Source: Mycoplasmatota bacterium
GTDB lineage: Bacteria > Bacillota_I > Bacilli_A > MAG-NZ
Assembly (NCBI GenBank): GCA_018394315.1
Contig: CP074575.1
Location: 992,001-1,056,000, forward strand
Length of the DNA stretch: 64,000 nucleotides
Direction: 5' to 3'
A program made the translations under genes and the position numbers. Each line of letters starts with the position of its first letter. Position 1 is the first letter of the stretch. This document shows positions 50,749 through 64,000 of this stretch, one piece after another. The notes beneath the pieces were generated by a model. It did no database searches, was not told the DNA's origin, and was given only the letters and a program-made list of their open reading frames with translations.

Positions 50749-51096
50749 GGGGTTGTTACGGATTCGACGGGGTACGTGGAGTATTGTAAGCATGTCTTGG
50801 TTGCGCAAGTAAAAACGTTCGAGGTTTAATAACCGGAAACAAACAACAATTAGCATTCGCGTAATATAAACGCATGCATCGCTCCTAACTGGTGCCTATA
50901 CAGTTAGTGTAGCGATACGTTCATAGGCTGGGTTATAGTTGTGCCGTCTTAACAATTGTAACTAAGATCAATAAGACTCGCGAACGAATCGGGTGTCTAT
51001 TCCCAGTTCTAAGCTAAATCTAATAATAGAATAAACATGTAGAAAGCAGTATAAAATTTGCTTCGGACGGGGGTTCGACTCCCCCCAACTCCACCA
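50749..51096 (+). ncRNA. ssrA: tmRNA; tag peptide (A)GNKQQLAFA at 50835-50864
   Basis: 5' GGGGTTGTTACGGATTCGAC, 3' GGTTCGACTCCCCCCAACTCCACCA; TTGATA-17-TATTAT promoter upstream. Confidence 0.97.
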
Positions 51097-51125
51097 AAAA
51101 AATCGCTTAGATTACCCAGAAAGTA

Positions 51126-52112
51126 CTACTTCAGTTGTTGGGGGTTAGTTGAAAGGGGATTATCTAAATTTAATATATTTATAGGTGTACATACCTTATG
51201 CTCATCTTTAAGTTTATTATTGGATAAATGTAGATATTTTTGTGTAATTGTTATACTTGAATGTCCTAGTGTTTTTCTAATAAACTCTAAACTTGCGCCT
51301 TGTTCTAAACAAGTAGTAGCATATGTATGCCTGAATTTATGAAAACTCAAACTTATCTCACCAGGTAGATTGAGTTTTCTTTTTATTTCCTCAAAAAATT
51401 TATACATCCCATAGTAAGTTAATTGTCTTCTCGATATGTCATCTATTAATAGATAATCCGTAGGCTTAACAACTGATATATATTCTTCAATACTTTGCTT
51501 AGTATAATCTGTTATAAAGACACTTCTATGTTTCTTAGTTTTTGTAAACTTAAGGTTTATTTGGTTATTTTCCAAATCTAAGTCAGTAACCTTAAGTTGT
51601 CTAAGCTCATTTCTTCTTATGCCTGTGTCTAATAAGATATACACAATCGCTCTTGATCTTAAAATATGAGGTTTAGATGGTGCTGTTTGGAAAAAAGCGA
51701 ATACAGCGTTCAATATATCTTTTTGAATAATTACTGTTTCAATATCGTCTTTGTCTAGTAGTTTAAAATTACTCATTGGATTAGTATCTATATATTCTTG
51801 TGACACACAGTATTTCAGAGCTTGTTTGAGAGTCTCCAGCCTCTTGTTTATGGTATTGTTCTTATTACCTTTTGCCTTCTCGAACTCGATGAATCTATAT
51901 ATACTATTGTTTGTTATATCCTTGGTAGTGTTAACTTTTATTCGTTTAAGGTAACTAATAATCACATCTAAATGTTTATTATAGTACTTATACGTTTCAT
52001 ATCTATTGGTGTGCTTGCACCTATTTAAGTATATAGTTCTTACCTCATCTAAAGGTAGACCTTTATCATTTTTCTTGATTAACTCTGAGATTAAGTTCTC
52101 AATGGTATTCAT
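51126..52112 (-). CDS. Tyrosine recombinase/integrase
   Basis: DTGIRRNEL, HKFRHTYAT, LGHSSITITQKYLH catalytic residues. Confidence 0.96.
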   Translation of the reverse strand: MNTIENLISELIKKNDKGLPLDEVRTIYLNRCKHTNRYETYKYYNKHLDVIISYLKRIKVNTTKDITNNSIYRFIEFEKAKGNKNNTINKRLETLKQALKYCVSQEYIDTNPMSNFKLLDKDDIETVIIQKDILNAVFAFFQTAPSKPHILRSRAIVYILLDTGIRRNELRQLKVTDLDLENNQINLKFTKTKKHRSVFITDYTKQSIEEYISVVKPTDYLLIDDISRRQLTYYGMYKFFEEIKRKLNLPGEISLSFHKFRHTYATTCLEQGASLEFIRKTLGHSSITITQKYLHLSNNKLKDEHKVCTPINILNLDNPLSTNPQQLK

Positions 52113-52201
52113 ACAATCAATCCCTTCTATATTGTTATAACTTCCATTATAAGAATTAGAAGGACAGTCTCTTACTCTCTGTTGAAAATGATTAAATAGT
52201 A

Positions 52202-52411
52202 TTATTTAGATAGATCTTTGAAAACTAGATCATCAATTGGAATGTTAAAAATCTCTTTAAGTTTCATTAGAAAATCTAACGTAGGATTTGATAGAGATCC
52301 ACTTTCATATCTGCGAAGGTAACTGTCAAAAATACCAAGCTCATCACTTAGTTGTTTTTGTGTCATTTTGGCTCCTAGACGAAGATACTTAATGTTAGAT
52401 CCTAAGAACAT
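52202..52411 (-). CDS. Xre/HTH_3 repressor (HTH only, no S24 peptidase domain)
   Basis: NIKYLRLGAKMTQKQLSDELG...YESG..NPTL; AAGGAG RBS. Confidence 0.9.
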   Translation of the reverse strand: MFLGSNIKYLRLGAKMTQKQLSDELGIFDSYLRRYESGSLSNPTLDFLMKLKEIFNIPIDDLVFKDLSK

Positions 52412-52424
52412 ACTAAACTCCTTA

Positions 52425-52483
52425 TTGACAAGAACATATATATTCTATATAATGTATTTATCAACCGAACATATATATTCTAT
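52425..52483 (+). promoter_or_regulatory. Early promoter with two operator copies
   Basis: TTGACA (52425)-17-TATAAT (52448); GAACATATATATTCTAT at 52432 and 52467. Confidence 0.85.
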
Positions 52484-52580
52484 TGTTAAGTGTAAAAACG
52501 AGAACACCTGGTCGTGTCCTAGTTTCTGTAAAGCTATAATCATTCTCAACATCTTTGATTATAGCATATTTACTGGGAAA

Positions 52581-52777
52581 TTTCTATCAGGAAGAGTCGA
52601 CATGATTCTCCTGATGGGGATAGAAAATACAATGCACGAGGATTTCATTTTAATTTCTCCTTCTATATAAGACTGCTATCAATTCGATGTTTTTATATTA
52701 TTGGACTTGGTGAGCCTGTTCCTAGATGGCAGTCGTGGGGATGGGTTCACTAAGTCCAATAATTCTATATGGGAGGA
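52581..52777 (+). ncRNA. Structured 5' leader (G-U-rich hairpins plus anti-SD pairing)
   Basis: Hairpins 52581-52620 and 52697-52763; 52658-52668 pairs with the RBS region 52767-52777. Confidence 0.6.
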
Positions 52778-52782
52778 TCTTT

Positions 52783-52959
52783 ATGTTTGTAATATATCAC
52801 AAAGGCAAACCAATGTTAGCAGGTCATGCAACTATTGAGGATGCTAAGAGAATATATGAAGAGCGTAACCCTGATGTAGTATCAAAATCAAAGAGTAACG
52901 AGCGCACAGAGCGATCAAGAAAGAGTTTTGTGGGCAATAACCCACGTCAGTTTGTATGA
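52783..52959 (+). CDS. 58-aa hypothetical early protein
   Basis: GGGAGG RBS before ATG 52783; MFVIYHKGKPML... Confidence 0.6.
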   Translation: MFVIYHKGKPMLAGHATIEDAKRIYEERNPDVVSKSKSNERTERSRKSFVGNNPRQFV

Positions 52960-52983
52960 GAGTTCTATTACGAGGGGGTTACT

Positions 52984-53142
52984 ATGGAAAATAGTCATAG
53001 AGTGATAAAAAGTATCAATAAAATGATTGAAGACCTATGCAATGTTACTGAGTATAAGAGTGAACATTTTAATGATTGTAATTGGGATTGTAAAACATGT
53101 TCGCATAGAGAGTATTGTGAAGATTCAGACTTGTATTTATAA
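52984..53142 (+). CDS. 52-aa Cys-rich protein (not in ORF track)
   Basis: GAGGGGG RBS; MENSHRVIKSINKMIEDLCNVTEYKSEHFNDCNWDCKTCSHREYCEDSDLYL*. Confidence 0.7.
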   Translation: MENSHRVIKSINKMIEDLCNVTEYKSEHFNDCNWDCKTCSHREYCEDSDLYL

Positions 53143-53166
53143 ACGATCACAGAGTTATTACTATCA

Positions 53167-53412
53167 GCCAAAATTGGCGCGTGCGGCTACGCCGCTATTG
53201 TGCTCTGCTCTTTGTTTTTGTTATAAAAACAAATAAATGCCAGCAAGCTGTCATCGTATTTATTTTTATTATAGTTTTGGTTTTTTGGTTTATACGTTTT
53301 CGTACAGTGCGCGCCAGTAGCATTGTTGCCGAAAGTGCGACATGCTTCCGCTCTCGATGGGAACAGCTTAGACCCATTTCTTCCATTGTGTTTTTGGATG
53401 AACTGGGCTAGA
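53167..53412. other. Multi-hairpin non-coding element with GC-rich stems (ncRNA or single-strand origin/packaging signal)
   Basis: Closing stem 53175-53182/53309-53316 around four hairpins, plus a GAAA-tetraloop hairpin at 53319-53346 and a further hairpin at about 53369-53410. Confidence 0.55.
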
Positions 53413-53434
53413 CGATATATCAGGGAGGGATATT

Positions 53435-53641
53435 ATGAAAGTATCAAAGAAGATGTTAAATCATTACTTATGTTATTTACTTGATGTTGTATCACTATTG
53501 TTTACTGTATTAGGTATCTATTCTTTTGCAGAGTTAATGATAGCAGTAGGTTTATTGTGTTTAATAATAAGTTTTCTACTCCATAAGTACTTATGGGATC
53601 AGGATTATTATAAATATAAGTTCAGAGGAGAGAAGGAATGA
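53435..53641 (+). CDS. Small 2-TM protein
   Basis: GGGAGG RBS; two hydrophobic helices. Confidence 0.75.
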   Translation: MKVSKKMLNHYLCYLLDVVSLLFTVLGIYSFAELMIAVGLLCLIISFLLHKYLWDQDYYKYKFRGEKE

Positions 53642-53904
53642 AAGTGAAGTATGTAATTGAGACAAAGAAGATTACAACATGTAAAGATTGTTTCTTTAAC
53701 ACTATAGAGTTAGGACAGTTTGTAGATGTGCATAGTTGTGGTTTAAATGAATTTATTAATACTGAGTTTCACTCTGTAAAGTTAAACAAACCACCTCATT
53801 GTCCATTAGTAAGGTTTAACGATATTTCTACTGATGGAGTTATTGCAGTTCATGGTAGTGTGGATAATTGTGAGGAGGGCTATAGTGGTAAGGATTCCAA
53901 GTGA
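53638..53904 (+). CDS. Hypothetical Cys-containing phage-type protein
   Basis: CKDC...C...PPHCPL; ATGA coupling. Confidence 0.7.
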   Translation: MKVKYVIETKKITTCKDCFFNTIELGQFVDVHSCGLNEFINTEFHSVKLNKPPHCPLVRFNDISTDGVIAVHGSVDNCEEGYSGKDSK

Positions 53905-54211
53905 AAGTATAGTGAGTCAAGTGACTTCAACAGATGATAAATCAAATGTGTTGAGTGCATCTGATATAATATCAGGTTTAAAGGACTTGATAGATGATAG
54001 AAAAAGTTCCATTACAAATTATGAAGTTGAGAGCGATAACATCTACAAGTACGATATTGAAGTATTAAGTGATGCTATCAAAATAATAGAGAACTCACTT
54101 GTGATACAGTGTTTCTTAAGTGAGATTAAGGCTCTATTGAATGTAACTGGTGTTAACTCTAAGGGGCAAGCGATTAAACGTATAGAAAAGTTTTTAAAGA
54201 GATTTAATTAA
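53885..54211 (+). CDS. Hypothetical protein
   Basis: GAGGAGG RBS before GTG 53885; helical, charged sequence. Confidence 0.65.
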   Translation: MVRIPSESIVSQVTSTDDKSNVLSASDIISGLKDLIDDRKSSITNYEVESDNIYKYDIEVLSDAIKIIENSLVIQCFLSEIKALLNVTGVNSKGQAIKRIEKFLKRFN

Positions 54212-54260
54212 TTGATGATCTAGTTTTTAATATCTACATATTAAAATGGAGGATATTTAA

Positions 54261-55031
54261 ATGCTAGGAAAATATTGTTATAACAAAATATACAACGAAG
54301 ATAGTTATAAAGCTATTAAGCAGTTACCTGATAATTGTATAGATCTAATTGTTATAGATCCACCTTACAAGTTAAACGTGAACACTTGTGAGAATGGATT
54401 AAAAAGCTCTAACCCAGTTACTAGAGGTATGAGTCAAACACAACATGAACTAAAGAAAAAGAACTTGCATGTTGGAATAGATGATGAGCTACTTACTGAA
54501 ATGGTAAGAGTTATGAAAAAGATTAATATTTACATTTGGTGCAACAAGAGACAGCTAAAACAGTACTTCGATTTCTTTGAGAAGTATGAGTGTAATTTTG
54601 AATTGTTAGTGTGGTGTAAAACAAACCCAACACCAGCAACTAATAATACGTTTTTGCCTGATATAGAGTATTGTTTCTACTTTAGAGAAAAAGGAGTAAA
54701 GTTACGAGGCTCATATGACACAAAGCATAAATTTTATATTAGAAAGACAAACCAGGAAGAGAAGGCTTTGTACTTGCATCCGACTATTAAGCCACTGCAG
54801 TTCATAAAGAACTTCATTATTAATTCTAGTGATGTAGGGAATGTAGTAGCTGATTTCTTTATCGGAAGTGGAACTACAGCAGTAGCATCTAAAGAGTTAC
54901 ATCGTAATTATATTGGGTTTGAAATAGATCCTGAATATTATAAGATAGCTGTGGACCGTATTAATGGTATTACTGCAGGAGGTCAGACAAGTATATTTAC
55001 AGATTTTGAGCAAGAGGAAGTGATTCTGTGA
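54261..55031 (+). CDS. Orphan N6-adenine/N4-cytosine DNA methyltransferase (beta class)
   Basis: DLIVIDPPY, HPTIKP, DFFIGSGTT, GFEIDPEY. Confidence 0.93.
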   Translation: MLGKYCYNKIYNEDSYKAIKQLPDNCIDLIVIDPPYKLNVNTCENGLKSSNPVTRGMSQTQHELKKKNLHVGIDDELLTEMVRVMKKINIYIWCNKRQLKQYFDFFEKYECNFELLVWCKTNPTPATNNTFLPDIEYCFYFREKGVKLRGSYDTKHKFYIRKTNQEEKALYLHPTIKPLQFIKNFIINSSDVGNVVADFFIGSGTTAVASKELHRNYIGFEIDPEYYKIAVDRINGITAGGQTSIFTDFEQEEVIL

Positions 55032-55935
55032 ATGTAGGACTAATTGATGTTGAAATGAAAACACATAAATTTCCTAATTTAGCATTAATGAAAATAAGTT
55101 CCTATCATAAAGAACTGGGAGATAACGTTGAGTGGTATGACCCTCTTAAAGGGTCATCAGAAGAGTACGACATAGTTTATATGAGTAAGGTATTTGATGA
55201 GACCTACAGCTCTGATTATAAATATCCAGTATACGCAAAAAAAATTATCAAAGGTGGATATGGGTATGGTATTTACGACTTACCATTCGAGAACTATGAG
55301 AGTCAGTTTCCAGATTACTCACTTTATCATGATATCTATCCAAAATATAAATATACAGCATTTGGATATTTAACGCGAGGGTGTCCAAGAGATTGTGAGT
55401 TCTGTATGGTAAGTGATTACGAAGGACTTAAGAGTAGAGTTGTTTCTAATGTTGATAATTTCTATGAACCAGCTTTTCACAAAGAGATTAAGTTATTGGA
55501 TCCGAACTTGCTAGCTTGCAGAGATAATATTGAATTATTAACACAGTAACAAATACTAATGCGTTAATAGATATTACGCAAGGTTTTGATATAAGACTGT
55601 TAACGCAAGAACAGGCTAGTATAATCAATAAATTTAGAGTTACTGCATTACACTTCGCTTGGGACAACATGGACAATGTCACTGAGAAACTATTAGAAAT
55701 AAAGAGAGAGTGGCTTGTATTTGAAAGAAGAAAACTGAGGGTATATGTACTATGTAATTTTAACACCACGTTCAATGAAGATTTATATCGAGTTAACAAG
55801 CTCAGACAACTTGATTATGATCCTTATGTAATGATTTATGATAAACCTAGTTCGCCACACAATATTAAAAGATTAGCGAGATGGGTAAATAATAAATTCA
55901 TTTGGAACACAGTTAAGTCTTTCGAACAGTATTAG
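55028..55935 (+). pseudogene. Phage-type radical SAM protein with a 1-bp frameshift near 55547
   Basis: FPNLALMKISSYHK, RGCPRDCEFC (CxxxCxxC); restoring one T joins it to DITQGFDIRL...LHFAWD...DPYVMIYDK. Confidence 0.85.
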
Positions 55936-55949
55936 AAATACTTTGTGAG

Positions 55950-56147
55950 GTGATTCTATTGGAGTTATGTAAGGCTGACAATGGTAAGTACTTTAGAGGA
56001 ATTTATGAAGGTTGTTTTGAAGATATAGAGATTAGTGGAAAGATTAAAAAGGTTAATCCAAATAAAGTGACTGTGGAAGTACTCACAACAATAGATGGAT
56101 GGAATTATTCAACACTGATACTTAGTAAGTTTATACATGAAGTATAG
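55950..56147 (+). CDS. Hypothetical protein (frame stays open to 56252 after the TAG)
   Basis: GAGGTG RBS-like sequence; start uncertain. Confidence 0.55.
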   Translation: MILLELCKADNGKYFRGIYEGCFEDIEISGKIKKVNPNKVTVEVLTTIDGWNYSTLILSKFIHEV

Positions 56148-56282
56148 GACAAGCCATTAAGATGTATTGATGTTGAAGAAATAAAAGCAGCGATTGAGCA
56201 TCATCGAGAGCTAGATAGAAAGAAAAGAAGTGTCAATATAACTAGGTATTGAGTGTTAAATTTTGGATCGTGAGGTGATCGT

Positions 56283-56621
56283 ATGAGTTTTATACATAAA
56301 ACATTCAAAACTTACGATGAACTTCGTGAGGAACTTCAGTTCTTGGAACTGAGAAAGATAGTACTAGAGAGTCGAGGTACTAAGAAAGAATTGAAGATAT
56401 GCTTAAACCGAATTACTGAATTGAAGAGTATCATTGATGTTATTGAAAGTAGAATAGAGAAGTTCGCTGAAAACAATGATAGACGATATAAAGTGCTGTA
56501 TTTACGAATAGTAAAACGTAGAAGTAATCCTGAAATAGCAGATGATCTTGATTACAGTATAAGACATGTTAGAAGAATATGTAGCGACTTCAATAAAGAT
56601 TTCCTGCAAAGTAGTGCATAG
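56283..56621 (+). CDS. ArpU/RinA-like late transcription activator (sigma region 4-type HTH)
   Basis: Coiled-coil N-terminus, then YKVLYLRIVKRRSNPEIADDLDYSIRHVRRI. Confidence 0.75.
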   Translation: MSFIHKTFKTYDELREELQFLELRKIVLESRGTKKELKICLNRITELKSIIDVIESRIEKFAENNDRRYKVLYLRIVKRRSNPEIADDLDYSIRHVRRICSDFNKDFLQSSA

Positions 56622-56643
56622 ATAGTTAAAAGGGGGTGGAGCG

Positions 56644-57480
56644 ATGAGAAAAGTAAGTTATCATATCGAGGGTTCAGATCCTCAGGGAATAATTATGGAT
56701 TCAAATGTATCAGCAGCTGTAAAGCTATTCCATACAATAGTCCCCTGGATGCTCAATAAGGATTTAACTGAGATACAAGCGTCATCGCTCACATTTGCAG
56801 TAAGGTGTGGATTCGTAGATTCATCATTTCAAGAAGAGTATAATGCTGCTAGATCGGTAAATGAAATTAGTACCGAACTAAAATTGAAGAAAGATAGAAT
56901 TGATAGTAAAGTGAATAAGGTTATTGATACGCTTAAGAAACTAAGATTAATCAATACTAGACAAGTTCACAATAACTATAGAGGATCTAAAAGATATATA
57001 TCACTAAATAACTCAGAAGTACGCAAACTGCTGAGTAATTTTGACGATAACCTAACTGATTATGAAATTGATAATACTAGTTATGACATCAAAAATAATA
57101 GAGGAACAATTATTGTAATCAGGAAATTTGTTAGATACAGAATATTTTCTTTAGTCGAGGCGATTAAGAATCTTAAAGAAGATTTTAACAAGTATAGAGT
57201 AAGACAAATTAGAAACTTAAAGAAAAAAGGTTTGAGATTGATTGAGAAAGATAACGGAGACATAGTTGAGCTAATAGAAATTGAGTACAAGCGAAAACTT
57301 AACTCTAAGGAAAGGTTTATTATTGATAGGTGGAAATACTCCTACGATGATGTAAAATGGGCTGTATTGGAAACACTCAAGCGCAAGATCCATAAAGTCG
57401 AGTACCTGTATAAGATACTTGAGAACAATGAAAAACAGATTAAGAAGAATCACGAGTATTACAATCAATTTATGAGCTAA
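56644..57480 (+). CDS. Putative replication initiator (wHTH-like middle, DnaD-like C-terminus)
   Basis: SVNEISTELKL...IDTLKKLRLI; C-terminal RKLNSKERFIIDRW...YLYKILEN resembles DnaD-C; repeat array follows. Confidence 0.55.
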   Translation: MRKVSYHIEGSDPQGIIMDSNVSAAVKLFHTIVPWMLNKDLTEIQASSLTFAVRCGFVDSSFQEEYNAARSVNEISTELKLKKDRIDSKVNKVIDTLKKLRLINTRQVHNNYRGSKRYISLNNSEVRKLLSNFDDNLTDYEIDNTSYDIKNNRGTIIVIRKFVRYRIFSLVEAIKNLKEDFNKYRVRQIRNLKKKGLRLIEKDNGDIVELIEIEYKRKLNSKERFIIDRWKYSYDDVKWAVLETLKRKIHKVEYLYKILENNEKQIKKNHEYYNQFMS

Positions 57481-57533
57481 ATAATAAAGAGGATCCAACG
57501 GATTCTACTTTTCAATGTTAACTATATTATGAG

Positions 57534-57556
57534 ATGAGTAGAACTCATTTTTTTTT
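57534..57556 (+). terminator. Terminator of the early operon
   Basis: ATGAGT-AGA-ACTCAT followed by a T run. Confidence 0.7.
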
Positions 57557-57575
57557 GCATATACCTCTTAAGATA

Positions 57576-57659
57576 GGTAGGTTAAGTTGATACGGTAGGT
57601 AGGTTGAAAATGTAAGAAAGGTAGGTTGATACCTGGTTTTAGATATGAGATGGGTAGGT
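57576..57659. repeat. Helically phased GGTAGGT repeats (candidate origin iterons)
   Basis: Copies at 57576, 57594, 57598, 57620, 57653. Confidence 0.75.
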
Positions 57660-57768
57660 CAGTATAGTTATAATAGAGAACACTTAGAGAAAGTTAGTAA
57701 TCGATTTACGAGAACATCTTTACTTTTTTTAAATAATTTTTTTGTAAATATAATCATTTTCTTTTGAG

Positions 57769-57804
57769 ATGTCCTTTTTATGTCCTACCAACTTAGTGTA
57801 TATT
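57769..57804 (+). promoter_or_regulatory. Candidate activator-dependent late promoter
   Basis: ATGTCC-N5-ATGTCC over the -35 region; TATATT -10 at 57799. Confidence 0.55.
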
Positions 57805-57832
57805 GAACTAAATTTGATAAGGAAGTGGTTTT

Positions 57833-58147
57833 ATGAACGTGATTTTAAACGTTCCTGAACTTGATAATTTAACAGACTCAGCTCGTAGATTCTTCTGTGA
57901 CTTGGTATCAAGAGAATTTATCTTAACGGATAGAATAAAAGCCACGAATGGTCAGCTACTCGATGCGATTCCAACAGCAACATCGACTAGATCTATAAGT
58001 AGATGGTTGAAATTGATTAGAGAGGAAGGACTCATTGAAGTCAAAAAAATTAAAATTAGAGAAGACTATTTTAAGCGAGAGCTATCTTTATCAGAAAAAG
58101 GAAAGAGGGTCCAGGATTATATCATAGCAGGCTCTCAAATAAATTAG
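57833..58147 (+). CDS. Winged-HTH-like DNA-binding protein
   Basis: ATNGQLLDAI...STRSISRWLKLIREEGLIEV...LSEKG. Confidence 0.65.
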   Translation: MNVILNVPELDNLTDSARRFFCDLVSREFILTDRIKATNGQLLDAIPTATSTRSISRWLKLIREEGLIEVKKIKIREDYFKRELSLSEKGKRVQDYIIAGSQIN

Positions 58148-58157
58148 GAGGATTTGT

Positions 58158-59261
58158 ATGGCAGGAAAAAAAAACAATATTCCAGGTATCAATTTACCTT
58201 GGGAGTATGCAATATTTATTGCAATCATTGTAATAGTGATTGGTGCTATTCAATGGGGATGGTTCCAGTTTGGTGGAGTTCATGAGATTGATCGTGTAAA
58301 TCCAGTCGTACTATTAGATGTTGATTCAGAAGTCAGCACTGTTGAGAAAGAAGGTACATTTGATATAGAAGTTAAAGTAGACAATGGTGAGGATACGGAA
58401 ATTATTGCATTTATTATTAATGCTGTGGAGTATACTGAGTTCGTTCAGTCTTCAACCGAAGATGGACTATATACTATAAACGTTACAGCTGACGATCTAA
58501 TCGGAACAAAAGTGTACGAAGTACAGAAGATCAAGTACCAGGTGGACTCAGAAGATAAGACACTTAGTATTATCGAGGATGATTCTATTACATCAGCAGT
58601 AACAATGACACTTACTCATAATGAACCGAAATTCATGGGAGTAGCAGTTAATGAAAATGTAGCTGTAGGTACTGCAGCAGCTGTTGTAATCAGCTTTGAT
58701 GATGTTGAAGGTATATCTGAAGTCGTAATTGATGGTATTACTTATGATGAAGAGACTGACTTTGATGTAGTTGACAATGCAGAAGAAATTACTGTTAACA
58801 TTGCTGGTTTATCTGTAGGTGAACATGAGTATATCTTAGAGTCATATACGTTTGATACTGGAACTCAAAGTATAAAAGTTGAATTAACTTCGAGTAATAC
58901 AATGACGTTTGATGTTGTTAAAGCAGTACCTGAGCTATTATCAATAATACCAAGTGTTGACACATTTACAACTTCAGGAGTAGTAGAAGGGACTGCAGAT
59001 TACAACTTAGTAATTACATTTGATGAGGTTGATGATATCTTCAGTATTACAATTAGTGATACTAAGTATGTTTTATCTAGTAATAATGATGTTACAGTGA
59101 ATGCAGTATCTGATACTATTACGATTGCATTAAGTCAAACAGATGATACAGTTGGAACGTACTCGTTTGAGCTAGAAGAGTTTGAATTCTATAATTCACT
59201 TGAAATGATTATTGAGGCGTTAACTGAAGAAAACACGTATAGTATTTCAGTAACTGCATAG
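58158..59261 (+). CDS. N-terminally anchored acidic surface protein with about three beta-rich (Ig-like) repeats
   Basis: TM at aa about 16-38; repeats VKVDN..IIAFIINA, ISFDD..ISEVVIDG, ITFDE..IFSITISD. Confidence 0.75.
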   Translation: MAGKKNNIPGINLPWEYAIFIAIIVIVIGAIQWGWFQFGGVHEIDRVNPVVLLDVDSEVSTVEKEGTFDIEVKVDNGEDTEIIAFIINAVEYTEFVQSSTEDGLYTINVTADDLIGTKVYEVQKIKYQVDSEDKTLSIIEDDSITSAVTMTLTHNEPKFMGVAVNENVAVGTAAAVVISFDDVEGISEVVIDGITYDEETDFDVVDNAEEITVNIAGLSVGEHEYILESYTFDTGTQSIKVELTSSNTMTFDVVKAVPELLSIIPSVDTFTTSGVVEGTADYNLVITFDEVDDIFSITISDTKYVLSSNNDVTVNAVSDTITIALSQTDDTVGTYSFELEEFEFYNSLEMIIEALTEENTYSISVTA

Positions 59262-59278
59262 GAAAGTGGTGAATATAT

Positions 59279-59590
59279 ATGGAAGTAATTCTTAAATTAT
59301 TTGAAAATACAAGAGAATTCATTACTTCAATATATACAGTAGCACGATTAGGGACCGCATTTAGTTACTTCATGTGGGCCCTTCTTTTTATAATTGCTGT
59401 AATGTTGTTAGTAATTGTAATTCTTTTACTTAGAGGAGTAGCCTTTATATTTGAATTTATATTCGCATTACCTGACTTCTTTAGAGATAGTGACGGTGAT
59501 GGGATAAAAGATAGAAAAGATACTGATAAAAATGGTGATGGTATCCTTGATTGGATGCAACCTAAGAATATCTTTAAAAGAAGGAGGTAA
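59279..59590 (+). CDS. Membrane protein with C-terminal DxDxDG Ca-binding-like motifs
   Basis: Long hydrophobic segment, then DSDGDGIKDRKDTDKNGDGILD. Confidence 0.75.
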   Translation: MEVILKLFENTREFITSIYTVARLGTAFSYFMWALLFIIAVMLLVIVILLLRGVAFIFEFIFALPDFFRDSDGDGIKDRKDTDKNGDGILDWMQPKNIFKRRR

Positions 59591-59595
59591 TTTGA

Positions 59596-62292
59596 ATGAA
59601 GAAAGTTTTAAGTATATTTAGTTTATTTGTAGGTGGTTTAGTTGCTTTCACTTATAACAATCCATTAGCTGTGGATCATTCATATACACCTTCAGTAAGT
59701 GCAGCTGAAGTAACAGCTACAGATGCATCAACTTATAATCTAAATTATCCGTTTTATGTGAGACAAGCAAGCGATGATAATGGGACTACTACATACTCAC
59801 TAACAAACCTGATCCAGGACGAGAGTGAGTTAAGTACATTATCTAACACGTACTTTCATGATGAAGTAAATGGAGCTGATATTGAGAGTCACCCATTAAG
59901 TAAACATATTGCGACTAAAAGTGCTGATGCTTTTGAGTCAGGTGGTTTTGAAGGGCGAACAGGATCATACGCACAATTTAGATATATCGATTTCTATCAT
60001 ATAAGTCCTAGTACAAGTATAACAATCAGTGGGGATTATTATTGGACCAATGATTCAGGGACTGAATGGGAGAGTAGACATTACTGGCGTATTTATATAA
60101 GAATGTTTGATGAAAACTATAATTTTATAGCTGAAGAATACGCAAATAGTGCTGCAACTTTTACAACACCAGCTAATGCTGCTTACTTTAAGATGGAGTT
60201 CTCATTGCATAGATATTCAGGGGATGGTTCGCCTAAAGCAGACCAAAGGACTTTGACATATGCGATAAGCAAATATAACTATGTTTATGATAATGATACT
60301 TCATACACCTCAACAACGTATACACCAGCAACTATTAGTACATCTAATTATGTTGAGTACTCATATGACGATATTGACTACACTATTATGAGTGCAACGT
60401 CCGATACGATAGAGGAGTATTATTCATTTACTAATGTAACAACATTAGGTAGTCCTATTTCACTTACAGAGATTGCTTTTAGTGAAGAAACCATAACTGC
60501 AGTGGATCAAGAGTATTACATGTTACTTACATTAAATAATTCAGATGGATTACCTTTTGGTGATATAGTTGTGGATGGTACGTTAATAAGACATGAGACT
60601 GATATTGCATCAGGGTATGTAATAAATGATGAAAATACTGAGATAGCAATACCACTCACTAATACACTTACAGAAGACGGATCTATAACACATGCGATAG
60701 AAACGATTGAGGTATTTGATAATGGAACTTATGAAATATGGACCATTAATAATAATCATTCTATTTCAGTAGAGTTACCAATCCAACAAACAGCTAGTTA
60801 TGTTGACTCGTACATCGACAAAACTTCTGTAACGTTCGGTGAGGACTATAATCTTATAATTGAGCTTGATAACCCTGACGAATATTATACTGGTACCTTA
60901 GTGATCAACGGGATTGAGTACGAGGAAAACGCAGGATATACAGCTAGTCCTGGTTATTATTTAGTTACTGTTCCTTTAACAGCTCAGAGTGTTTATGGAG
61001 ACAATGTACACCATATAGACTCAATTGAGTTTATTGAACAAGTATCGCCATTCGATAGTTATGTAATCAATATCGATAAGTTGAAGTATGTTAGATCTGA
61101 TTTAACTTTTACCAACGATATTACCGTAACTGATATTGATGTACCAGGAACTTCTTACTTAGGGGATATTATCGAAGTAAACATTTCCTTAGATAACCCT
61201 GAACAATTACCAGTAAATTTTATTCAAATGAATGGGGATCAATATTCTGTATTTGAATCAAACGATACTAATACATTAATCACTATTGAATTATTAGTAG
61301 GAACTGAAGAAGGATCCTTTGACTACTTAATTGACTATATAAACTTTAGCAAAACATTTGGAGAGGATGTTTACAATTCTAGTAAAGTAATAGATTCGCC
61401 TTTTAGTTATACAGTTAATAATCCGATAGATCTAGCTGGAGTTAGAGTTAAGAACTTTAGAAGTGCCGAGTTGAAAGCCACAGTTGATAGTCCAGTAGAT
61501 CTAGTAGTAACACTCGATAATCCAAATGCTTATGAGATACACTCGATAATTATCAATGGAGTAAGTTATAAAGATTTCACTCATGACGATAACTACACAG
61601 TGATGACAATTCCATTTATTGCAGCAGATGAAATAGGAGACATGTATATATCACTAGATGGAGTAAGATTTGAACACTTTAATAATATTCAAACATTCAA
61701 CTCGTTCTTGATTGATGATATCGCTATTGTTCTTCCAGTACAGACATATGAATTCACTAAAGAAGTAGAAGTGAAATCAGTCAGCCTAGATACAGAGAAT
61801 GTATATGTTGGGGATAAAACTAATTTACTATTAACACTTGATAATCCTAACAATTACGAGATTACAGCTTTATCAATAAATGGTAGAGAATATTCAGCTA
61901 GTGAGTTTGATATGAACGAAGATTACACTTCAGTAACTATCCCAACAAGTGTCGGAAATGTATCAAGTATTATATTTAACCTGGACTCGATTACATTCAA
62001 GAGATTTACTGAACTAGGAACTAGAATATTTGAGTCGATAACGGAGTTTGTTGTAGGTTCAGAATATGAAAAACAAATTGCGCTTACAAACAATGTATGG
62101 TGGGCAGTGTTCTTGTATTCAACATTAGCACCAAGAGTAGATTGGTTACTTATGAGTGATGCAGGCCACATATGGATGTTATCTGTATTTGCTGTCATAT
62201 TACTATCATTCTTAATATATTTAATTGCTAGAAAGAAGAAAGAAAAAATTAATAATACTAAAGTCATAAAGGGTAAGAGGGTGAGAAAATGA
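59596..62292 (+). CDS. 898-aa type I membrane protein: signal peptide, N-terminal head, five 108-111-aa repeats, C-terminal TM and basic tail (spike/adhesin-like)
   Basis: LDNP motifs at 60868, 61192, 61516, 61840; C-terminal WMLSVFAVILLSFLIYLIA-RKKKEK. Confidence 0.8.
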   Translation: MKKVLSIFSLFVGGLVAFTYNNPLAVDHSYTPSVSAAEVTATDASTYNLNYPFYVRQASDDNGTTTYSLTNLIQDESELSTLSNTYFHDEVNGADIESHPLSKHIATKSADAFESGGFEGRTGSYAQFRYIDFYHISPSTSITISGDYYWTNDSGTEWESRHYWRIYIRMFDENYNFIAEEYANSAATFTTPANAAYFKMEFSLHRYSGDGSPKADQRTLTYAISKYNYVYDNDTSYTSTTYTPATISTSNYVEYSYDDIDYTIMSATSDTIEEYYSFTNVTTLGSPISLTEIAFSEETITAVDQEYYMLLTLNNSDGLPFGDIVVDGTLIRHETDIASGYVINDENTEIAIPLTNTLTEDGSITHAIETIEVFDNGTYEIWTINNNHSISVELPIQQTASYVDSYIDKTSVTFGEDYNLIIELDNPDEYYTGTLVINGIEYEENAGYTASPGYYLVTVPLTAQSVYGDNVHHIDSIEFIEQVSPFDSYVINIDKLKYVRSDLTFTNDITVTDIDVPGTSYLGDIIEVNISLDNPEQLPVNFIQMNGDQYSVFESNDTNTLITIELLVGTEEGSFDYLIDYINFSKTFGEDVYNSSKVIDSPFSYTVNNPIDLAGVRVKNFRSAELKATVDSPVDLVVTLDNPNAYEIHSIIINGVSYKDFTHDDNYTVMTIPFIAADEIGDMYISLDGVRFEHFNNIQTFNSFLIDDIAIVLPVQTYEFTKEVEVKSVSLDTENVYVGDKTNLLLTLDNPNNYEITALSINGREYSASEFDMNEDYTSVTIPTSVGNVSSIIFNLDSITFKRFTELGTRIFESITEFVVGSEYEKQIALTNNVWWAVFLYSTLAPRVDWLLMSDAGHIWMLSVFAVILLSFLIYLIARKKKEKINNTKVIKGKRVRK

Positions 62293-63407
62293 AAAAACTG
62301 CTAATCATATTAATGGTACTTGCAATATTCATGATACGTATTCCTGAAGGAGTCGCATCTGAAGAACTAAAACAGATTGGTGATAAACAGATACCACCAA
62401 CAGAACATCCTCTTTTAATTCATCAGTCATTCGAGACTGTAGGGGATAGAAAATATAGGATGGAGTTAGGTTTTGGAACTAAAACACCCTTTGTAAGAAA
62501 TTATTTTCTTACCTATTATGACCTCAATTATAAAATTGAATACATAGTTATTAATAATCAGAAGATATATCCTAAATGGGCTGTCGAAGGAAGAGATGAC
62601 GTATATTATGAATTTGGTTATAAAGTAGTAAACCTATTTTCTCCTGTACCGAGTGACGTGTGGATGTGGTATGAGATTACATTTGACAAAGTACTACCAC
62701 CCGACATCAATAATAAGTGGTATGTAAATGAAATTAAATTTCAAAATATGAGTTATGACTTTGTGAGTGATAATGGAGAGAAATATCCAACCTACTTGTT
62801 TGAGTATGATGACTTGAGTAAATATCCTAGGATTGTTCTTGAGCATGGAGATGTATTTCATCACGAACTAGGTTATTTATTCGTAGAACCAGGATATACA
62901 GCATTCTCAACTTACGATGAAACATTGTCACTCGAGGAAAGAGACATTACAAATAGGGTTGTTGAAGACTACGGATCCATAACACCAGGAGAGCCTATTG
63001 AGGTCGAAGATTCATATATCATTAACTATACTGTTGAGGACGATTTTGGAAATGTTGGATCTACTACTAGGCTATTAGTCATTGGTGATGCAGAACCACC
63101 TTTAATAAATGAGGATCCTGAGCCTGAGACACCTTTTGTAGAAGATGGCACAGATACAGCAACTGACAACACAGAGTCTTCATTCGACTTCGAGCAATTT
63201 TTACTCGATTACTGGTGGGTAGGATTAATTATAGCCTTTGCAATTATTATGTTTGCAACCAATAGCTTTACAAAGTCATTTGCAGTGACGATTATTATAT
63301 TCGTCATACTACTTATGATATACGGAAATGAGTTGATTGACTTATCACTTGAAGGATTGATAATAGATGGACTCACAGAAACAGTAGAAAGTAGAATTAC
63401 AAGTTAA
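62289..63407 (+). CDS. Exported membrane protein with DUF5011-like Ig domain and two C-terminal TMs
   Basis: Signal peptide; PRIVL...FVEPGYTA...DITNRV...INYTVEDDFGN...TRLLVIGD. Confidence 0.75.
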   Translation: MKKLLIILMVLAIFMIRIPEGVASEELKQIGDKQIPPTEHPLLIHQSFETVGDRKYRMELGFGTKTPFVRNYFLTYYDLNYKIEYIVINNQKIYPKWAVEGRDDVYYEFGYKVVNLFSPVPSDVWMWYEITFDKVLPPDINNKWYVNEIKFQNMSYDFVSDNGEKYPTYLFEYDDLSKYPRIVLEHGDVFHHELGYLFVEPGYTAFSTYDETLSLEERDITNRVVEDYGSITPGEPIEVEDSYIINYTVEDDFGNVGSTTRLLVIGDAEPPLINEDPEPETPFVEDGTDTATDNTESSFDFEQFLLDYWWVGLIIAFAIIMFATNSFTKSFAVTIIIFVILLMIYGNELIDLSLEGLIIDGLTETVESRITS

Positions 63408-63679
63408 TGTTTAAGCTGTTTCAGATTGATAGTTTTGAAGAATTTATGGTGTACTTCAATGACTTTAATCCTTCTGTTAAGCTGATACTTTATATAATAA
63501 TTTTTGCTTTAATAGTTTTTATCGCAAAAAAAATAAAGTGGGCCGGAAAGGTAATGAACTATCTAGTGGGGATCACAATAGTCTTAAAACTAGTTTCTAT
63601 GGCTGGATTCCAAGTCACTTGGATAGAAGGTTGGCTTGAAATGGTTAGCTATGCAATAATGTTTTGGGGGTTGGCGTAA
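63407..63679 (+). CDS. 90-aa small multi-TM protein
   Basis: TAATG coupling at both ends; 2-3 hydrophobic helices. Confidence 0.75.
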   Translation: MFKLFQIDSFEEFMVYFNDFNPSVKLILYIIIFALIVFIAKKIKWAGKVMNYLVGITIVLKLVSMAGFQVTWIEGWLEMVSYAIMFWGLA

Positions 63680-64000
63680 TGTTTGAAGTAGAAAGAGTGG
63701 ATAAAATTAAAAATTTCCTAGATAGACTTGCTAGAATACTTAAGCAGCTACTCTTAATAGCAGTAATATATATAGTATATAACTTAATTATAGGAACAAT
63801 TACTCCTGAACAATTATTGAGAATGTCTTTGGTGATTGCTGCAGTAGTTGCAGTAATCGCCATTGTTATATCTCTATTGTATAAGTTTATTTGGGAGTAT
63901 GTTGAATGTGAGATACTAAGGAAGAAATCAGCACAAGTACTTGTAGACACTAAAAAGATACCAATGGTGAGACAAGTATCAGGCGATCAGGGACGAGGTA
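63679..64000 (+). CDS. Partial gene: two N-terminal TMs followed by a probable P-loop NTPase (truncated by window end)
   Basis: Open from ATG 63679 to the edge; ends ...PMVRQVSGDQGRG with the next codon starting with A (GxxxxGK candidate). Confidence 0.7.
   Translation, partial: MFEVERVDKIKNFLDRLARILKQLLLIAVIYIVYNLIIGTITPEQLLRMSLVIAAVVAVIAIVISLLYKFIWEYVECEILRKKSAQVLVDTKKIPMVRQVSGDQGRG

Follow-up and report, generated by a model that had tools for sequence, protein, structure and literature searches.

A membrane-anchored Zot/pI-like ATPase with exchanged Walker A and Walker B residues in a probable plasmavirus-like provirus of a wall-less bacterium

In this study, we describe P0002, a 695-aa membrane-anchored Zot/pI-like ATPase in which aspartate aligns with the Ser/Thr that follows the Walker A lysine and threonine aligns with the Walker B aspartate. 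We consider it probable that P0002 is an active ATPase serving the assembly of a temperate dsDNA provirus, enveloped, budding and plasmavirus-like, that resides in the tmRNA gene of a wall-less bacterium, a reading in which hydrolysis, site geometry, oligomer state and virions are what we infer. Two residues are near-invariant in P-loop NTPases, namely the Ser/Thr that follows the lysine of Walker A and the aspartate of Walker B, and it is debated whether they serve as metal ligands only or take part in a proton relay. The ATPase gene begins at the end of the window, by which we mean the whole stretch of 64,000 nucleotides analyzed, taken from the genome of a Mycoplasmatota bacterium (contig CP074575.1 of assembly GCA_018394315.1, here G000:C1). 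Coordinates are those of the window unless the contig is named, and the features are as follows.

51067..64000, no strand: window part of the integrated element of 28.5 kb (G000:C1:1043067-1071548), defined by a 31-bp att repeat
51067..51097, plus strand: 31-bp left attachment core at the tmRNA 3' end (tmRNA 50749-51096)
51126..52112, minus strand: tyrosine integrase, abutting the tmRNA and related to L2 ORF5 (E 7.7e-24 among 14 L2 proteins)
52202..52411, minus strand: HTH_3 repressor (E 5e-13)
54261..55031, plus strand: N6/N4 DNA methyltransferase of the early region (PF01555, E 4e-29)
56644..57480, plus strand: Rep-like protein of 278 aa, distinct from the rolling-circle Rep_trans (homologues in the G005, G151, G207, G263 and G333 elements)
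57833..58147, plus strand: winged-HTH protein ahead of the membrane module (family profiles)
58158..59261, plus strand: 367-aa protein with an N-terminal TM anchor (repeats common to the 898-aa family)
59279..59590, plus strand: 103-aa membrane protein
59596..62292, plus strand: 898-aa beta-repeat surface protein with a C-terminal TM anchor, candidate spike or adhesin (weak Ig-like neighbours)
62289..63407, plus strand: 372-aa protein with an N-terminal signal or anchor and two C-terminal TM helices, candidate envelope protein
63407..63679, plus strand: membrane protein of 90 aa with two or more TM helices, its translation coupled to that of the ATPase (also conserved in G005 and G001)
63679..64000, plus strand: P0002, 695-aa membrane-anchored Zot/pI-like ATPase (whole gene G000:C1:1055679-1057766)
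63982..64000, plus strand: Walker A variant GDQGRGKD (Gly102-Asp109), in the window up to 64000, the first base of the Lys108 codon; the codon of Asp109 follows outside
G000:C1:1056558-1056563, plus strand: Walker B variant, Thr294 at the Asp position followed by Glu295 (register from profile alignment)

The integrated element and the ATPase gene

The right attachment copy, an identical 31 bp, lies outside the window at G000:C1:1071518-1071548. Downstream of the integrase, HTH repressor, methyltransferase, Rep-like and winged-HTH genes stands a membrane module of six genes (367, 103, 898, 372, 90 and 695 aa), of which the ATPase is the last. The 278-aa Rep-like protein would act in replication, judging from the position of its gene. 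At 55028-55935 the phage radical-SAM gene phrog_9298 is split in two (173 and 88 aa). The 367-aa protein matches the orthologue of the 898-aa protein in the element of another genome, G005 (E 9e-11). For the 898-aa protein itself the ESM Atlas gave weak Ig-like neighbours only (TM-score by query at most 0.30), and the 372-aa protein, whose model was of too low a quality for a structure search (pLDDT 44.7), gave a faint signal for the Ig-like PF16403 (E 0.086, and E 0.0022 for its G005 orthologue).

The distal 12 kb of the element, after the ATPase, holds mostly defence-like cargo, namely a GapS1-like protein (a faint match), a PD-T4-7-like protein, an IS6 transposase, a type II methyltransferase with a GHKL/restriction-like partner, and an NB-ARC-like NTPase. 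In one cargo operon (L001:9476-14335) a methyltransferase gene stands with genes for a protein that joins two GHKL domains to an N-terminus resembling a restriction enzyme, and for a 431-aa partner outside all known families. The 27 element proteins, 19 of which were also covered by a second scan, gave no match to a terminase, capsid, relaxase, VirB4 or other T4SS family, although diverged forms could be missed, and neither, at E 1e-4 or better, did 49 proteins of related elements (48 of 72 ORFs and one more, the rest having been scanned before, being evident by homology or being likely shadow frames). A promoter scan around the ATPase gave a result near chance level (33 vs 27.6).

The source genome carries other traces of this kind of element. 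A remnant of the 3' end of the integrase gene, 87% identical, lies 6.6 kb past the right attachment site (G000:C1:1078184-1078488; L002) and suggests an older insertion at the tmRNA. Two further elements, at tRNA-Ser and tRNA-Arg (G000:C1:657908-662578 and 1475022-1479699), share the genes for the integrase, the repressor, the methyltransferase and the Rep-like protein with the element in the window, followed by cargo; they lack the ATPase and the membrane module and are either stripped relatives or satellites.

With regard to the ATPase gene, a sequence-only reading of the window had proposed an ORF that starts at ATG 63679, coupled to the 90-aa membrane gene, encodes two hydrophobic helices and stays open to the edge, where it was taken to enter a Walker A motif. 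The start does overlap the TAA of the membrane gene (TAATG), although an in-frame TTG at 63664 provides an alternative, the helices start at about residues 24 and 49, and the frame continues past the window edge and ends 1,766 bases beyond it, for a full length of 695 aa. The 695-aa product is already recorded as a called gene product, so that the truncation is a matter of the window edge only, and the stop of the window at the P-loop is fortuitous. The letters read at the edge, MVRQVSGDQGRG, are present there, and the next codon is AAA, the lysine that had been anticipated (Lys108). It is at the following position that the prediction fails, for the expected Ser/Thr is replaced by GAT, Asp109, which makes the motif GKD and not GK[ST]; likewise, the hhhhDE Walker B foreseen downstream is absent, and the corresponding strand (residues 289-293 in the model) ends in Glu293-Thr294-Glu295 (IVVETE). 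Further downstream are RH (325-326), TQ (338-339) and Arg349. The P-loop core spans approximately residues 90-515; a helical insert separates Walker A from Walker B, and the AlphaFold2 model shows a coiled coil at 368-453.

Family of the ATPase and exchange of its Walker residues

A homologue search with P0002 over 1.84 billion representatives returned 37 matches, and the AlphaFold2 model was built from an alignment of 31 full-length sequences (pLDDT 81, pTM 0.70); the ESM Atlas model, at a pLDDT of 0.37, was uninformative. Among 48,161 chains the best solved fold for the model was the Zot N-domain 2r2a (Z 12.4, rmsd 4.1, 173 aligned), after which came RecA, the STIV2 packaging ATPase B204, HerA, VirB4 (Z 9.4), TcpA (Z 8.8) and FtsK, all at Z 8.8-9.8; in a second structure comparison other P-loop ATPases reached Z 10.3, and the lead of Zot over HerA and B204 is about 2. 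Foldseek E-values against solved structures were weak (best 0.014), and in BFVD the top named rows included inovirus Zot proteins and L2 ORF3 (P42538, rank 7, E 0.019). In Zot/pI ATPases the motifs run in the order Walker A, Walker B with Glu, RH, TQ and Arg, and the FtsK-HerA/Zot type has a Gln closing the strand after Walker B and an Arg further downstream. P0002 shares with the Zot/pI ATPases the fold, the order of motifs and the membrane anchor, and differs from them in having GKD and ETE for GK[ST] and DE, a long coiled coil, and no Pfam Zot score. The best match to Zot and the other fold matches place it with the Zot/pI-type FtsK-HerA ATPases, as the sequence-only reading had supposed in calling it a TM-anchored ATPase with such affinities (the closest solved folds being Zot, then B204 and HerA); nevertheless, since P0002 fails the GK[ST] and DE tests, we classify it as a variant rather than an ordinary member of the family.

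The profile searches that had been proposed as the way to recognize the protein did not do so, as P0002 had no match in Pfam, PHROGs, NCBIfam or PADLOC. The Pfam Zot family PF05707 also failed to match the canonical relatives described below and L2 ORF3. There was no match of the profile of the P0002 clade (A2) to PDB sequences, no tblastn match of P0002 in phages or plasmids (nor of the canonical relative P0045 in phages), and none was found in IMG/VR contigs. GKD is also present in the other P-loop division, in certain kinases of deoxynucleoside monophosphates and of phosphomevalonate; a kinase reading based on GKD and faint dNMP-kinase profile scores was dismissed because the fold disagrees.

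The profile of P0002 run over 399 genomes of the same class gave 24 matches, nine of them strong, and among the weak ones were proteins of about 440 aa that contain the insert and have the usual GK[ST] and DE. These canonical ATPases (P0044, P0045 and P0066, from Acholeplasma and related proviruses) share with P0002 the insert and 396 homologous columns, the profiles of the two sets (A2 and A3) aligning by hhalign with a probability of 99.8 (E 1.2e-29); unlike P0002, they keep GK[ST] and the Walker B Asp and often stand beside Rep_trans. In this alignment Asp109 takes the Ser/Thr position of Walker A, Thr294 the Asp position of Walker B and Glu295 that of the catalytic Glu. Each of the two profiles has one match in the source genome. 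The spacing between Walker A and Walker B in the P0002 clade is 178-207 residues.

From 97 non-redundant homologues, one without a P-loop and nine fragments missing one site were dropped. The remaining 87 rows comprise 40 with Asp after the Walker A lysine (K+1) and Thr/Ser at Walker B, 42 that are canonical, five with Thr and Thr/Ser, and none with Asp at both sites, counts that are not independent events because the rows are kin. In trees built without the two motif columns, 37 rows with Asp at K+1, P0002 included, form one clade, while a second pair arises within a multi-TM sister group in which Walker B is Ser/Thr in 8/8 and K+1 is Thr in five, Asp in two and Asn in one. A single clade for all Asp(K+1) rows was rejected (p-AU 9e-17), in a test on 40 selected rows and with the group named after the first tree. 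As judged from the trees, Asp at K+1 arose in two lineages; in these sequences it never occurs together with the Walker B Asp, whereas the Walker B change can stand alone. Strict co-dependence of the two substitutions is ruled out by the multi-TM sister group, six of whose eight members lack Asp at K+1.

Within the swapped clade, K108, D109, E295, H326 and R343 are kept in 37/37 rows, as is T/S294, and Q339 and R349 are each kept in 36/37 (41/41 and 40/41 in the canonical relatives). Invariant columns number 9/471 and mean identity is 26%; that Lys108 and the catalytic Glu are invariant at such divergence favours an active enzyme, and the conservation pattern as a whole favours a working ATP site. 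Conservation also rules out a sequencing error at Asp109 or Thr294. The orthologue in G001 (L004:1011-2471) is broken by one stop codon.

It might be argued that P0002 serves the same virus by binding nucleotide, as a switch or scaffold that hydrolyses it hardly or not at all, since the loss of the K+1 hydroxyl removes the proposed catalytic alkoxide and Asp109 may merely tighten the binding of Mg or ATP. In the accessible part of their paper, Kozlova et al. (PMC9599734) tie activity to Ser/Thr at K+1 and note that the slow enzymes torsinA and DnaC have Asn there, which would agree with a switch, and conservation alone does not separate binding from turnover. However, conservation of the catalytic Glu, of the Gln at the strand end and of the candidate Arg finger is as strict as in the canonical relatives, and P0002 is the only such ATPase found in the element. 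We regard a switch as unlikely, and an active assembly ATPase as the better account.

The exceptions to the P-loop pattern that are listed in the same part of that paper have Gly or Asn at K+1, or Glu, Asn or Thr at Walker B, and MglA, with Thr at Walker B, is rescued by an Asp on the next strand (Kozlova et al., PMC9599734). P0002 resembles them in that one canonical partner is lost, the Walker B residue of MglA being Thr as well. It differs in that its acid sits in Walker A, and Asp at K+1 is absent from the exceptions given there (PMC9599734). A literature search in full text, with most subscription journals outside its scope, returned no paper on GKD with Walker A, and in the literature on plasmaviruses and related elements no description of the P0002 ATPase family was found.

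Related elements and the comparison with plasmavirus L2

Acholeplasma virus L2 is the only classified plasmavirus in the 2018 ICTV profile, according to which its integrase alone has homologues in other viruses (PMC12662186). The Plasmaviridae are described there as temperate viruses of Acholeplasma with a tyrosine recombinase, integration in tRNA genes, a genome of about 12 kb and all ORFs on one strand, whose pleomorphic, enveloped virions contain circular dsDNA and leave the cell by budding (PMC12662186). The element studied here has an L2 ORF5-related integrase and a 31-bp att in the tRNA-like 3' end of the tmRNA, and shares with L2 the wall-less host group and a run of membrane genes that closes with a small TM gene and an ATPase (ORF1-ORF2-ORF3 in L2), so that the 90-aa membrane protein is the positional analogue of L2 ORF2. 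Unlike L2, it measures 28.5 kb as against 12 kb, and its integrase and repressor are on the opposite strand. L2 ORF3 (L057:2278-3216), a 37-kDa protein annotated as unknown, carries GGGKS, LILDE and RH...SQ, which are Zot-like ATPase motifs; however, it is half as long as P0002, without the insert and without the swapped residues, and hhalign of the P0002 family against it (probability 0.4 and 16) showed no sequence-level link.

The element's own surface proteins did not match the L2 ORF13/14 and ORF1 profiles, with faint links for the 372-aa protein only, and G000 and G005 encode surface proteins of another set than L2 does, with faint links at most. It is in the relatives that the connection is found. 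Homologues of L2 ORF13 stand beside the swapped ATPase in 8 of the 13 clade loci examined (E 1e-17 to 1e-36), three of the five loci without one being contigs of less than 5 kb. These matches exceed background, the best ORF13 score among 2,485 frames of G000 being E 9e-4, and the similarity is in part that of the widespread PF16403 Ig-like repeat. Moreover, G333 encodes a protein of the L2 ORF1 family (E 6e-26), which has no Pfam domain. The neighbours of the canonical ATPases are of the same kind as those of the clade, with homologues of L2 ORF13, ORF14, ORF1 and ORF12, and one canonical-ATPase element has homologues of L2 ORF1, ORF5, ORF12 and ORF14.

The same membrane module, in the same order, is found in G005 at tRNA-Leu, in an element of about 40 kb with tRNA att repeats, and in the relatives in G151, G255, G263 and G333 flanking tRNA repeats lie 14.0-22.5 kb apart. 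Close ATPase relatives with a named source come from Izemoplasmatales, Mollicutes, Mycoplasmatota and Bacillales MAGs, and canonical insert-bearing ATPases occur in Acholeplasma. The one Izemoplasmatales phage found in the literature, with a 47.9-kb extrachromosomal genome and a hexagonal particle, as given in the accessible part of its description (PMC10470597), is unlike this integrated 28.5-kb element.

Several observations concern the gene content of the relatives. In three loci a membrane-anchored trypsin-like protease directly follows the swapped ATPase (L039:15997-16761, L044:4275-5057 and L046:15974-16753), and it is possible that this is an envelope maturation protease. The G207 element carries as cargo a 2,234-aa RHS-repeat protein (L046:6033-12737), the G005 cargo after the ATPase consists of Shedu-like SduA, E1/E2-like and PDC-M43A-like proteins (L006:660-9192), and the G343 element, which has a canonical ATPase, is present in two tandem copies 10.5 kb apart (L048:3582-19697). 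In L049, L051, L052, L053 and L096, proviruses combine L2 envelope homologues, a canonical ATPase and Rep_trans (e.g. L052:4442-5770). Such Rep_trans-bearing proviruses could be kin of L172, an unsequenced enveloped ssDNA phage (PMC13375369).

The sequence-only reading referred to inovirus pI/Zot-like and FtsK-HerA motors, and held the ATPase to be the best gene for classifying the element; P0002 did classify it, and the features point to a plasmavirus, enveloped and with dsDNA, rather than to an inovirus. It is conceivable that P0002 drives extrusion, as the pI of a large filamentous phage of inovirus-like kind that integrates in monoderm hosts. Its closest fold is Zot/pI, its two N-terminal TM helices fit the pI criterion of one or two TM domains in the accessible text of Roux et al. 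(PMC6813254), and Rep_trans genes adjoin many canonical and multi-TM relatives. Yet there is no Pfam Zot match, and the criteria in that text want a rolling-circle-type initiator (PMC6813254), while neither G000 nor the loci of the GKD clade yielded a Rep_trans. Short genes and short coat proteins (30-90 aa, single-TM) are a further criterion; no typical coat gene of this kind was found in the module, where the 90-aa protein has at least two TM helices and the larger genes encode 367-898 aa, and the early region contains a hydrophobic ORF of 68 aa. The long genes, the 28.5-kb length and the L2 envelope homologues that neighbour the ATPase in relatives likewise stand against a filamentous phage, which we consider quite improbable; elements of the P0002 type might be among the rejected pI-like clusters of Roux et al.

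Finally, it is highly improbable that P0002 pumps DNA, or acts in coupling, for an integrative element of non-viral nature spread by cell contact or vesicles with defence cargo: the N-terminal TM helices and the helical insert between the Walker motifs do resemble coupling proteins, VirB4 and TcpA are among the fold matches and the defence cargo is large, but the scan of 27 element and 49 relatives' proteins gave no relaxase (the neighbour that the sequence-only reading had named as refuting its view, in company with VirD4/TcpA), VirB4 or other T4SS family, there is no plasmid match, and the envelope proteins of the relatives are common to a proven virus.

Proposed role and significance

If P0002 is the assembly ATPase of an enveloped provirus, the exchanged side chains would keep a hydroxyl-carboxylate pair at the Mg site, with Asp109 as a direct Mg ligand and Thr294 as its hydrogen-bond partner, and Lys108, Glu295, Gln339 and Arg349 would act as in the canonical members. 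Anchored on the inner face of the membrane, P0002 may draw on ATP to deliver the circular genome, once excised, to patches of membrane that contain the large surface proteins, from which particles would bud without lysis.

A broader proposal, which we put forward tentatively and hold to be somewhat short of probable, is that wall-less Bacilli are host to a widespread and undescribed group of enveloped, budding viruses, of the rank of an order, which takes in dsDNA as well as rolling-circle members, has L2 as one small branch and uses a fully active motor in which Walker A gives the aspartate and Walker B the hydroxyl, and that this inversion evolved twice via a Thr+Thr/Ser intermediate. Should this be true, the Ser/Thr-Asp pair of the P-loop would work in either orientation, and an active swapped motor would contradict the need for a Mg-bound Ser/Thr alkoxide.

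The P0002-type ATPase offers a marker for plasmavirus-like proviruses that are missed by Pfam, PHROG and NCBIfam. Moreover, a family that has exchanged these residues and kept the Lys, Glu, Gln and Arg makes the question of metal ligand versus proton relay directly testable, with the canonical and half-swapped relatives as built-in controls for the swapped ATPase.
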